IMG/VR virus record: IMGVR_UViG_3300033075_001536
Location: 1 to 64,000 of that record
DNA: 64,000 bases
Direction: 5' to 3' (one strand)
Source of the DNA: a virus
Lineage: Duplodnaviria > Caudoviricetes
In this document: one piece after another, positions 16,711 through 36,146 of the stretch
Position numbering within the stretch: the first letter of the stretch is position 1
How the letters are laid out: each line of letters begins with the position of its first letter
Position numbers and translations under genes: made by a program
The notes under the pieces: model-generated
Databases searched by the model: none
What the model saw: only the letters and a program-made list of their open reading frames with translations
Told to the model about the DNA's origin: nothing

Positions 16711-16718
16711 TATATTTG
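16711..16718 (+). promoter_or_regulatory. Bacteroidota housekeeping-sigma -7 element upstream of the RNase P RNA
   Basis: TATATTTG matches TAnnTTTG, just 5' of the structured RNA. Confidence 0.55.
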
Positions 16719-16731
16719 TATTCTGATTTAA

Positions 16732-16956
16732 TAATTAAAAGATGATATATCGCACTACGGTTTAAAGACCATGTGAGGAAATTCAACACATCTTTGCTTA
16801 AGATGGGAGGCCTAGTAGAAATTCGAACAGTCGCTATCACCATCGAGGATGCAACTCAAAACAGACTAGCGGGTGAGCAACGCAATAATGTCGAGGTAGA
16901 GGCCAGTAGATAAATGATATGTTTAAAAACAGAAAGTTGATTACGATCATTAATTA
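16732..16956 (+). ncRNA. rnpB: Miniaturised RNase P RNA
   Basis: CR-I GAGGAAATTCAAC (16775-16787); CR-IV TAGATAAATGAT; CR-V ACAGAAAGTTGATTAC; P4 AAT(T)CAAC/GTTGATT with the bulged U; P2 ATATATC/GATATGT; P3 CAC..GGTT/GACC..GTG; P1 TAATTAA/TTAATTA; GC-richer than flanks; no ORF. Confidence 0.85.
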
Positions 16957-17012: not shown

Positions 17013-17159
17013 ATGATTTTAGGTGTTTGTGAACATCTTGAAAAAATGTTAGGAATTCCAGCTCTTCTTGCTAGAATTCTATTTGTTGTGTGGTTATTCA
17101 ATAGTATATCTGCTTTCTGGATATACATACTTATTGCTCTCTTAATATCACTTTCTTAA
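17013..17159 (+). CDS. Minimal PspC-domain membrane protein, not in ORF track
   Basis: MILGVCEHLEKMLGIPALLARILFVVWLF...IYILIALL matches the PspC I.GVC..L....GI....R..F pattern. Confidence 0.75.
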   Translation: MILGVCEHLEKMLGIPALLARILFVVWLFNSISAFWIYILIALLISLS

Positions 17160-34571: not shown

Positions 34572-35018
34572 ATGTCTAAAAAAGTAGATAGGTTATCCCA
34601 AATTGTTCCAGAAGTTTTTCCCAATATGGTTCGTACCTATAATGGGTTGTTATACGATGGAAATGGAAATTTAATAACAGTCTTATCCCAATTATCATAT
34701 AAAGTTTACACCTGTCTATTAACACAAAATGCTACATCAGACCCAACAGTTGTTGTCTTAGAAAATACAATCGGTGATATAAAATGGATAAGACATTCGA
34801 GTGGTGTATATCATGCATATTTAATAGATGCTTTCCCAGAAAATAAGACTTTCTATTTTTCACAAGCTACACAAAACAACACACCTGATAACGTTTGTGT
34901 CTATATGTCTAGAGGAAATAATGATATAATATCTATATCTACTTTATGGCAAGGATCTGGTGAAATTGATGGTTGGTTATTGAACACTCCTGTTGAAATA
35001 AGGGTTTATAATACCTGA
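34572..35018 (+). CDS. Putative virion structural (beta-rich) protein
   Basis: YKVYTCLLTQ..VLENTIG..PVEIRVY composition; AATATATA 34560-34567. Confidence 0.5.
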   Translation: MSKKVDRLSQIVPEVFPNMVRTYNGLLYDGNGNLITVLSQLSYKVYTCLLTQNATSDPTVVVLENTIGDIKWIRHSSGVYHAYLIDAFPENKTFYFSQATQNNTPDNVCVYMSRGNNDIISISTLWQGSGEIDGWLLNTPVEIRVYNT

Positions 35019-35197
35019 GATCCCTCTTGATTTTGCTCTAATCCATTCAAATATTCTTGAACTTTGTCTTTGTGAATAATTTCATCGGACCATTTGTAAG
35101 AGGTTCCTTTTTTTCTAGCTACAATTACCTTGACCCAATCTTTGGATCCTTCTTGTGTCTTTCTACCGGTATTTGCGTTTTTTGATACTTTTGCCAT
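35006..35197 (-). CDS. DUF4295-family protein (bL38-like ribosomal protein)
   Basis: MAK start, EGSKDWVKVI, SYKWSDEIIHKDKVQEYL match the Bacteroidota DUF4295 pattern as recalled; size fits. Confidence 0.65.
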   Translation of the reverse strand: MAKVSKNANTGRKTQEGSKDWVKVIVARKKGTSYKWSDEIIHKDKVQEYLNGLEQNQEGSQVL

Positions 35198-35210
35198 AAT
35201 TTCTTATATA

Positions 35211-35801
35211 TTAATTTTTTTCAAACTCTTTAAAACTTTCCACATGTTGAAGTTGATATCTTTCCTTCATTCTATCAAGAACCCCATTAATTTGTGAGAG
35301 TATATTGAGTTGTTTTTTATTTAGTTGACGAAGTTCAATAAGTTTTGAAACAATAAATTTTGTCTCATTAAAATATTTTGTTCTAAATTTATCCGAAGCA
35401 GTTGGGTGATCAGATATATTTTGAAGTCTATCACACAATTTAATTAAAAGTGCACCATCCGACATATTAATCATTTTATGTAGAAGATAATTTGCTTTTC
35501 CAACTGATTTAATTTTTTTGTCCGAGGATGAAAGTTCTTGTACAATATCAGCAATTTCTTTTCCAAACTCTTTTAACAAAACTTCATAGGTCACATCATC
35601 AACATCCTCTATTGAATCATGGAGTAAAGATGCGGCTCCTAAAATTGGATTGGTATCTACTCCCTTTAAAATTTGAAAAACTTTACGAACATGTCCATCA
35701 AAATAGGACATTTTTGTGAATTTTCTATTTACACCATGATGGGCTTTAATTGCAAAGTCCCAAGCTTTCTTTTCTAAGTCTGTAATTGGTTTGACTGCCA
35801 T
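35211..35801 (-). CDS. HD-domain small alarmone hydrolase (SpoT-HD/Mesh1-like)
   Basis: FAIKAHHG..RK...Y...H, LLHDSIED, FGKEIADIV.ELS, IKLCDRLQN. Confidence 0.85.
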   Translation of the reverse strand: MAVKPITDLEKKAWDFAIKAHHGVNRKFTKMSYFDGHVRKVFQILKGVDTNPILGAASLLHDSIEDVDDVTYEVLLKEFGKEIADIVQELSSSDKKIKSVGKANYLLHKMINMSDGALLIKLCDRLQNISDHPTASDKFRTKYFNETKFIVSKLIELRQLNKKQLNILSQINGVLDRMKERYQLQHVESFKEFEKN

Positions 35802-35852: not shown

Positions 35853-36146
35853 ATGATGTCAAAAACCGAAATGGATGAACTTTTTAAATCAGGTAAGAAA
35901 TTATACTCACCTTTGATTAAATTAGTTTATTTACCAGCTGCTGAAAAAGAGATAATTATATCTGCACCAATACGGACATTTAAAAGAGCTGTAGATAGAA
36001 ATAGAATTAAAAGACTCATTAGAGAATCTATCAGAAAGATGGAAATTGGTAAATATCATCTAGCTATTATCTATATTGGAACTAAAGTGGAATCATTTGA
36101 AAATATAAAAGCTGAATTAGAAAAAATTATTCCTAGAATAAAATGA
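35853..36146 (+). CDS. rnpA: RNase P protein component
   Basis: LFKSGKK and RNR motif FKRAVDRNRIKRLIRESIR; 97 aa, basic. Confidence 0.9.
   Translation: MMSKTEMDELFKSGKKLYSPLIKLVYLPAAEKEIIISAPIRTFKRAVDRNRIKRLIRESIRKMEIGKYHLAIIYIGTKVESFENIKAELEKIIPRIK

Follow-up and report, generated by a model that had tools for sequence, protein, structure and literature searches.

A phage RNase P RNA of catalytic-domain type, probably reduced from bacterial type A and encoded together with RnpA

The RNA gene and its surroundings

Here we analyzed a 64,000-nt stretch of DNA (the window) from an IMG/VR phage record of 170,678 bp (~171 kb), which has a G+C content of ~30% and an estimated CheckV completeness of 78%. 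The window carries a small RNA gene whose ends are marked by the two strands of helix P1 (Table 1). Its best clan match is RNaseP_arch, which aligns over the full model length at 16734-16955 (+) with 32.4 bits (E 2.6e-7), a match obtained with permissive thresholds and lying under the gathering score of 84. A covariance model that we built for this family (see below) scores 16733-16955 at 177.5 bits and finds exactly one copy in the 171-kb record. At gathering thresholds, Rfam 15 returned no families in the window, the RNase P class included, and searches of the whole record with RF00373 and RF00005 gave no match. In the cmscan alignments, RNaseP_arch covers GAGGAAA (CR-I) and ACAGAA with the P4 3′ strand (CR-V), and the positions of the specificity domain (S-domain) are deleted. 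CR-I, CR-IV, CR-V, and P4 with its bulged U are all intact. The original prediction of a miniature RNase P RNA at this site, made from the letters of the DNA, is thus borne out.

The gene stands alone, with a 109-aa ORF on one side and a small PspC-domain ORF on the other. The latter lies just 3′ of the RNA gene at 17013-17159 (+) and encodes 48 aa resembling a PspC-domain membrane protein (PF04024, 30.7 bits). The motif TAnnTTTG, which we take to be the Bacteroidota -7 promoter element, is found 13-18 nt upstream of P1 in the window sequence and in three relatives (L010, L034, and L040). Counted over both strands of the window, the motif has a background frequency of 0.93 per kb. A sigma-70 scan at the locus returned sites no more frequently than in shuffles, and a terminator scan there found none.

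Table 1 Features of the RNA locus and the accompanying protein gene, in window coordinates. Percentages of paired bases and counts of covarying pairs refer to the phage alignments.
Feature	Position	Strand	Evidence or remark
TAnnTTTG box TATATTTG, candidate Bacteroidota-type -7 element	16711-16718	+	~15 nt upstream of P1
Probable mini RNase P RNA gene, P1 5′ strand to P1 3′ strand, ~223 nt	16733-16955	+	RNaseP_arch and own covariance model
P1 5′ strand (16733-38 and 16741-43), pairs with 16946-48 and 16950-55	16733-16743	+	Compensatory changes in 8/9 pairs; inner 3 bp 92% paired (n = 41)
P2 5′ strand, pairs with 16916-16923, 8 bp	16744-16751	+	89% paired; 5-6 pairs covary
P3, CAC/GUG 16753-55/16773-75 and apical GGU/ACC 16759-61/16768-70	16753-16775	+	95-100% paired, covarying
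CR-I and P4 5′ strand (GAGGAAAUUCAAC), bulged U is U16783	16775-16787	+	96-97% paired; 6/7 pairs covary
P5, CAUC 16789-92 with GAUG 16848-51	16789-16792	+	99% paired, 4/4 covary (n = 41); among top MI pairs
P6 pseudoknot 5′ strand UUGCU, with AGCAA 16876-80 of the P17 loop	16794-16798	+	5/5 covary
Helix X (P7-like, 5 bp), GAUGG with CCAUC 16840-44	16802-16806	+	94-97% paired; 4/5 covary
Stub hairpin Y, GGC 16809-11/GUC 16830-32, 18-nt loop	16809-16832	+	88-97% paired; 2/3 covary
X/Y internal loop, 3′ side GCUAUCA (7 nt), facing GA 16807-08	16833-16839	+	Conservation
P5 3′ strand 16848-51, J5/15 CAA 16852-54, P15 5′ strand CUC 16855-57	16848-16857	+	
P16 16864-66/16890-92; P17 16867-71/16881-85, 9-nt loop	16864-16892	+	Covariation
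J16/15 GAGGUA including GGU 16895-97, then P15 3′ strand GAG 16899-901	16893-16901	+	Alignments
J15/2 linker GCCAGU and CR-IV AGAUAAAU (16909-16)	16902-16916	+	Direct reading
CR-V, J2/4 ACAGAA and P4 3′ strand GUUGAUU	16929-16942	+	cmscan match, alignments
rnpA, 97-aa RNase P protein with RNR motif	35853-36146	+	PF00825, 50.7 bits, cut-off 22.3

Homologues in other phages

Among GenBank phages, blastn recovered a copy with 76% identity from LR756502, an uncultured phage of 642 kb, and matched LR756511 in part. Scanning IMG/VR with two patterns, one for P3 with CR-I and the other for the GGU loop, CR-IV, and CR-V with no space for P18, gave ~45 further loci. The covariance model was seeded from 11 compact members, and an alignment in which P16 is misplaced in the L008 group was not used. 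The model has matches at 51 places (33-201 bits), of which 41 are distinct. It also finds one copy each in LR756502, LR756511, and LR745206, which are published huge phage genomes.

The stub between the two strands of helix X ranges from 15 to ~109 nt across the family and is 33 nt long here. Relatives with longer stubs match RF00010 (bacterial class A) best, at 47-64 bits and in all cases under threshold. The long stub of L019 looked CR-II/III-like by eye, and we considered it as an S-domain remnant; this candidate was dropped because the RF00010 alignment does not assign the strings to the S-domain. In L088:757-998, the 77-nt stub holds an element resembling a tRNA T-arm (GTGGG TTCAAGT CCCAC), on which ARAGORN called no tRNA. 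The member at L057:669-889 is without P16/P17, its P15 (CCC/GGG) being closed by a loop that bears the GGU. It has a 71-nt stub and the highest RF00010 score among those tested (63.5 bits), and it lies 5 nt from a tRNA-Gln gene. Five members (L008, L010, L034, L068, and L069) have an extra small hairpin, such as UACC-GAAA-GGUA, between the 5′ strands of P16 and P17.

Several RNA genes of the family are interrupted. In L044:1966-2798, and also in L032, L045, and L013, an insertion of ~450-650 nt divides the gene within the P16/P17 region and in L044 holds a 211-aa homing-endonuclease ORF of the GIY-YIG plus NUMOD3 kind (2094-2729). Group I intron models gave no match to the insertions of the split genes at E <= 0.01.

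We also scanned cellular contigs with the 3′ pattern. Among the 80 matches listed, most of which are estimated to be chance, two loci match the model. The strong match on a cellular contig, L171:1926-2125 (-), is a clear family member at 159.8 bits, on a contig binned as "uncultured Planctomycetia". It is surrounded by seven same-strand tRNA genes and short ORFs, and the contig looks like phage DNA binned with a MAG. For this reason, we do not claim that the RNA occurs in cellular genomes.

Helices and conserved motifs

Using a structure-blind MAFFT alignment of 16 compact phage members, we scored both a conventional RNase P model and the architecture of the original prediction. In the conventional model, 90.7% of positions are paired and compensatory changes are found in 44 of 59 pairs. 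Its covariation score is 0.68, against at most 0.15 with the partners slid by 1-3 columns, and this score was reached by none of 500 shuffles. Across the 41 distinct sequences, the corresponding values are 92.8% paired, compensatory changes in 44 of 52 pairs, and a score of 0.60, which falls to 0.09 or less on sliding. An MI/APC scan of all column pairs agrees, with the top Watson-Crick-compatible pairs all belonging to the conventional model. The support for P4 and P6 was not built in, since both had been omitted from the covariance model; still, 6/7 and 5/5 of their pairs covary.

In P4, AAU[U]CAAC (16780-87) pairs with GUUGAUU (16936-42) and leaves U16783 bulged, as is typical of this helix; G68 of P4 is replaced, with compensation. 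P5 is formed by CAUC/GAUG here, by CACC/GGUG in L001, and by AUUC/GAAU in L008. The 3′ strand of P6, AGCAA, lies within the 9-nt P17 loop. The UUGCU/AGCAA pairing of this phage is replaced in relatives by CCGCU/AGCGG, CCGUU/AACGG, CUUCU/AGAAG, or CCACC/GGUGG, and all five pairs covary both in the MAFFT alignment (100% paired) and across the 41 sequences (80% paired). P17 contains an A.A mismatch (16868/16884), and its pair 16870/16882 covaries as AU/GC/CG/UA, while P16 is 96-100% paired with covariation in 3/3 pairs. P15 comprises only 3 bp (16855-57/16899-901), which are 97-100% paired, and UA, GC, AU, and CG all occur at its covarying middle pair. The A preceding P15 is presumably the equivalent of A248, going by the alignment with E. 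coli M1 RNA as we know it.

The original prediction also named an L15-type GGU, which is indeed present. All 16 aligned sequences share GGU 16895-97, which lies, as in type A, within the J16/15 strand of the P15/P16 internal loop. The GGU loop of type-A RNase P binds the tRNA 3′-CCA, and by analogy the same role is presumed for GGU 16895-97. The CR-IV element of the universal core (AGNNNNAU), which precedes the P2 3′ strand, is present as AGAUAAAU at 16909-16; AGA and AAUG are invariant in the CR-IV region of the 16-sequence alignment. Across the alignments of phage homologues, the GGU, CR-I, CR-IV, and CR-V are invariant. P18 is absent, as originally stated. There is no room for it, since only 7 nt separate the P15 3′ strand (16901) from CR-IV (16909).

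The interval between the two strands of P5 contains only helix X and hairpin Y (43 nt, 16802-16844), and the specificity domain P7-P14, with CR-II/CR-III, is absent. Helix X and hairpin Y together stand in place of this whole domain. Helix X reads GAUGG/CCAUC here and GGUGG/CCACC, GGAAG/CUUCC, or GGCAG/CUGCC in relatives. We call it P7-like, since it corresponds to P7 by position alone: P5 is followed by the P6 strand, 3 nt, and then this 5-bp helix, whose 3′ strand abuts that of P5. In the alignments, the loop of hairpin Y holds a ~13-nt insertion peculiar to this phage. Within the X/Y internal loop, G16833 and A16839 are invariant or nearly so, and the MI scan of column pairs gave no pairing partner for 16833-39. 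We considered a kink-turn in this loop and rejected it, as the 3′ strand is without contiguous GA. Elsewhere, position 16852 (the first base of J5/15) covaries with 16903 (the third base after the P15 3′ strand), with an MI of 0.71 and 0% pairing; a tertiary contact could explain this, as could common descent alone.

RnpA and tRNA genes

The window also encodes a 97-aa RNase P protein, RnpA (Table 1). With the RNA and RnpA in one record, the phage has both subunits of a bacterial-type RNase P. Homologues of this RnpA with 35-38% identity are found in the huge phages LR756502 and LR745206, both of which also carry the mini RNase P RNA. A phmmer search of the PDB with the phage RnpA gave no match at E <= 0.001. 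RnpA is absent from three near-complete RNA-bearing records of 425-527 kb and from LR756511, so the RNAs of these relatives must use the host protein or act alone.

Beside rnpA, at 35006-35801 (-), are a 63-aa DUF4295/bL38-like ORF (35006-35197; 25.8 bits, slightly short of the cut-off of 27) and an HD_4 ORF resembling SpoT-type hydrolases (47.3 bits). The DUF4295/bL38-like gene and the TAnnTTTG box suggest that the host may belong to the Bacteroidota.

In many relatives, the RNA gene lies inside a same-strand phage tRNA array, often 3-10 nt from a tRNA, which supports a tRNA role for the mini RNase P RNA. The sole tRNA called by ARAGORN in the 171-kb record is a tRNA-Cys (GCA) at 94325-94396, with CCA not encoded, and the Rfam tRNA model had no match in that record. 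Phage substrates are therefore not evident in the record. However, tRNA arrays may lie off it, as the record is estimated to be 78% complete and the closest relatives are phages of at least 600 kb.

Single-sequence folding and alternative explanations

In the original prediction, the region after P4 was given an unusual internal architecture that would represent a new structural type. It consisted of a closed hairpin directly after P4 (CATCTT 16789-94 with AAGATG 16800-05), a helix between GGCCT (16809-13) and AGGCC (16900-04, preceded by GGTAG 16895-99), and TTCGA (16822-26) with TCGAG (16843-47), enclosing a pseudoknot in A-B-A′-B′ order of CGCTA (16832-36), TCACC (16837-41), TAGCG (16867-71), and GGTGA (16872-76). 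All of these strings are where they were placed, every complementarity exists in the sequence, and three of the five helices (H1, H2, and B) are in both the MFE and the centroid fold computed with ViennaRNA. Even so, we regard this architecture as extremely improbable. In the 16-sequence MAFFT alignment, its five helices reach 64% pairing and shuffles 62%; for the 41 distinct sequences, the values are 56% and 54%, respectively. The hairpin at 16789-16805 is 44% paired across homologues, where CAUC instead belongs to P5, UUGCU to the P6 strand, and GAUGG to helix X. GGCCU/AGGCC has zero compensatory changes, and its AGGCC arm overlaps the covarying 3′ strand of P15. The UUCGA arm lies within the insertion found in this phage only and is absent from all relatives. 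The pseudoknot that does occur here is the canonical P6 and not the one proposed: UAGCG pairs locally in P17, CC 16840-41 in helix X, and AGCAA in P6, each with covariation. The A-C/G-U core of helix B has nearly invariant bases, which overlap the covarying helix X and might conceivably mark a tertiary contact.

The MFE itself (-40.8 kcal/mol) is no better than that of dinucleotide shuffles (mean -40.0, z -0.21), so the complementarity on which the proposed architecture was built is at chance level for an A+T-rich sequence, and covariation contradicts it. For the catalytic-domain part, the outcome that the original prediction named as refuting it, a homologue alignment with ordinary type A or B helices, is largely what we see, with 16788-16906 folding into ordinary type-A P5, P6, P7-like, P15, P16, and P17. 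The specificity domain had been described as deleted or relocated; deletion holds, and relocation does not. The strings read as CR-II/III are J5/15-P15-J15/16 and the P6 strand in L17, and E. coli GGAGCAAGGCCAAAUAG is presumably the counterpart of the former, from the P5 3′ strand through J15/16. The nested part of the comparative structure, a different fold from the MFE, is computed at -18.3 kcal/mol, so far above it that correct folding must lean on pseudoknots, tertiary contacts, or protein. With H1/H2/B computed to be ~22 kcal/mol more stable, this fold could be a real alternative conformer in this phage, a trap or a switch that competes with the active fold. We find this very unlikely, as its conservation fails already in the closest relative, L001 (76% identity), the energy model ignores P4, P6, and the protein, and the MFE equals that of shuffled sequence. 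The locus could also be a functionless fragment of a captured host rnpB in decay, given a score under all Rfam gathering thresholds. To this we attach next to no probability: compensatory changes in 44 pairs and an invariant core indicate purifying selection on the structure and exclude a pseudogene, and three published genomes of huge phages contain the gene. Another alternative is a non-catalytic mimic, which would serve as a regulator or as a decoy titrating pre-tRNAs or the RnpA of the host, as was once proposed for the camelpox RNA. Loss of the S-domain, the few tRNA genes in the 171-kb record, and the precedent of an inactive viral RNase P-like RNA (PMC3001073) would all fit such a mimic. 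A decoy would need no full core, yet P4 with its bulged U, ACAGAA, the J5/15 A, the GGU, and P6 are kept across ~40 divergent phages. In addition, the phage supplies its own RnpA, the genes of relatives lie inside tRNA arrays, and engineered C-domains are active (PMC5839562), which together make a decoy an unlikely explanation.

Discussion

Taking structure and identity together, we consider it likely that 16733-16955 encodes a phage RNase P RNA that descends from bacterial type A, is cut down to the catalytic domain, and works as a subunit with the phage RnpA. It shares with bacterial type A (RF00010; E. coli M1 RNA/rnpB) helices P1-P5, the bulged U of P4, CR-I, CR-IV, and CR-V, and the A of J5/15, as well as P15 with a GGU-bearing internal loop, P16/P17, the P6 pseudoknot, and a bacterial-type RnpA partner. 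Unlike type A, it is without P8-P14, CR-II/CR-III, and P18, has a P15 of 3 bp, and is ~223 nt long rather than about 350-400 nt. It also scores under the Rfam threshold and is encoded by a phage. The helices that had seemed unusual were pairings of a single sequence that were lost on comparison.

To our knowledge, bacterial-type RNase P RNAs are taken to need the specificity domain in nature, forms with the C-domain only being laboratory constructs and the archaeal type T being the one minimal form that occurs naturally. Type T is found in the Thermoproteaceae and was reportedly described by Lai et al. in 2010. In this RNA (RF02357), the catalytic domain is present and most of the specificity domain is gone, with P10 terminated or missing (PMC3579882, PMC7191817). 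Type T works with archaeal proteins, its P2 has 3 bp, its P5/P15 linker has 2 nt, and P7-P9 are still present (PMC3579882). None of the first three applies to the phage RNA, which instead has a P2 of 8 bp (16744-51/16916-23), a 3-nt linker (CAA), and a bacterial RnpA partner, along with one stub hairpin. The phage reduction arose independently of archaeal type T.

Laboratory work on the E. coli enzyme offers a second comparison. The isolated E. coli C-domain cleaves substrates, efficient cleavage needs a "P6-mimic", and P18 adds nothing once the S-domain has been removed (PMC5839562). Like the engineered Eco CP RPR C-domain of that study (PMC5839562), the phage RNA consists of the catalytic domain only, with a P6-like interaction and with P18 dispensed with. 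The engineered C-domains are laboratory deletions of lower efficiency, whereas the phage RNA comes from a natural gene under selection and carries a P7-like stub. The phage lineage made the same reduction, keeping P6, the GGU loop, and P4 and dropping P18 and the S-domain, which matches the engineering work. Among viruses, an RNase P-like RNA of camelpox and other orthopoxviruses has been reported as inactive (PMC3001073). That RNA is only loosely RNase P-like; the phage RNA keeps every core motif together with covarying helices and comes with RnpA. In the literature covered, which largely excluded subscription journals, we came across no account of an RNase P RNA encoded by a phage, camelpox being the sole viral case.

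The most likely function is that of a working RNase P confined to the catalytic domain. We read the RNA as a catalytic subunit because the parts for catalysis and for the acceptor end are retained and those that read the T-loop are lost, and because of the parallels with the C-domain (PMC5839562) and type T. Retained are P4 and its bulged U, J2/4, the A that precedes P15, the GGU-bearing loop, and P6. In the mechanism that we envisage, the RNA would be transcribed from its own promoter and would bind the phage RnpA (35853-36146), or the host RnpA in relatives without one. P6 would lock P16/17 to the core. The RNA-RnpA complex would then cleave 5′ leaders off pre-tRNAs, recognizing the acceptor stem, the 3′ end (through the GGU loop), and the leader (through RnpA), with the T-loop and elbow left unmeasured.

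In this phage and in two published phages of 630-640 kb, the RNA is accompanied by its own RnpA. One could speculate, though we hold the idea as doubtful, that some large phages, this one included, have a self-sufficient RNase P made of a catalytic-domain ribozyme and their own RnpA, which does not measure the elbow and would have a changed substrate range, as the original prediction also suggested. If true, such an enzyme may act on phage transcripts or aberrant phage tRNAs that are poorly served by the host enzyme, or may sustain tRNA maturation once host RNase P has been lost in the course of infection. This locus contributes an RnpA encoded alongside the RNA, as in two published huge phages, and a covariation-tested helix map of the sub-lineage. 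It also offers a natural, compact system for studying how RNase P recognizes substrates when it has no T-loop ruler and how a virus benefits from bringing its own tRNA-processing enzyme.
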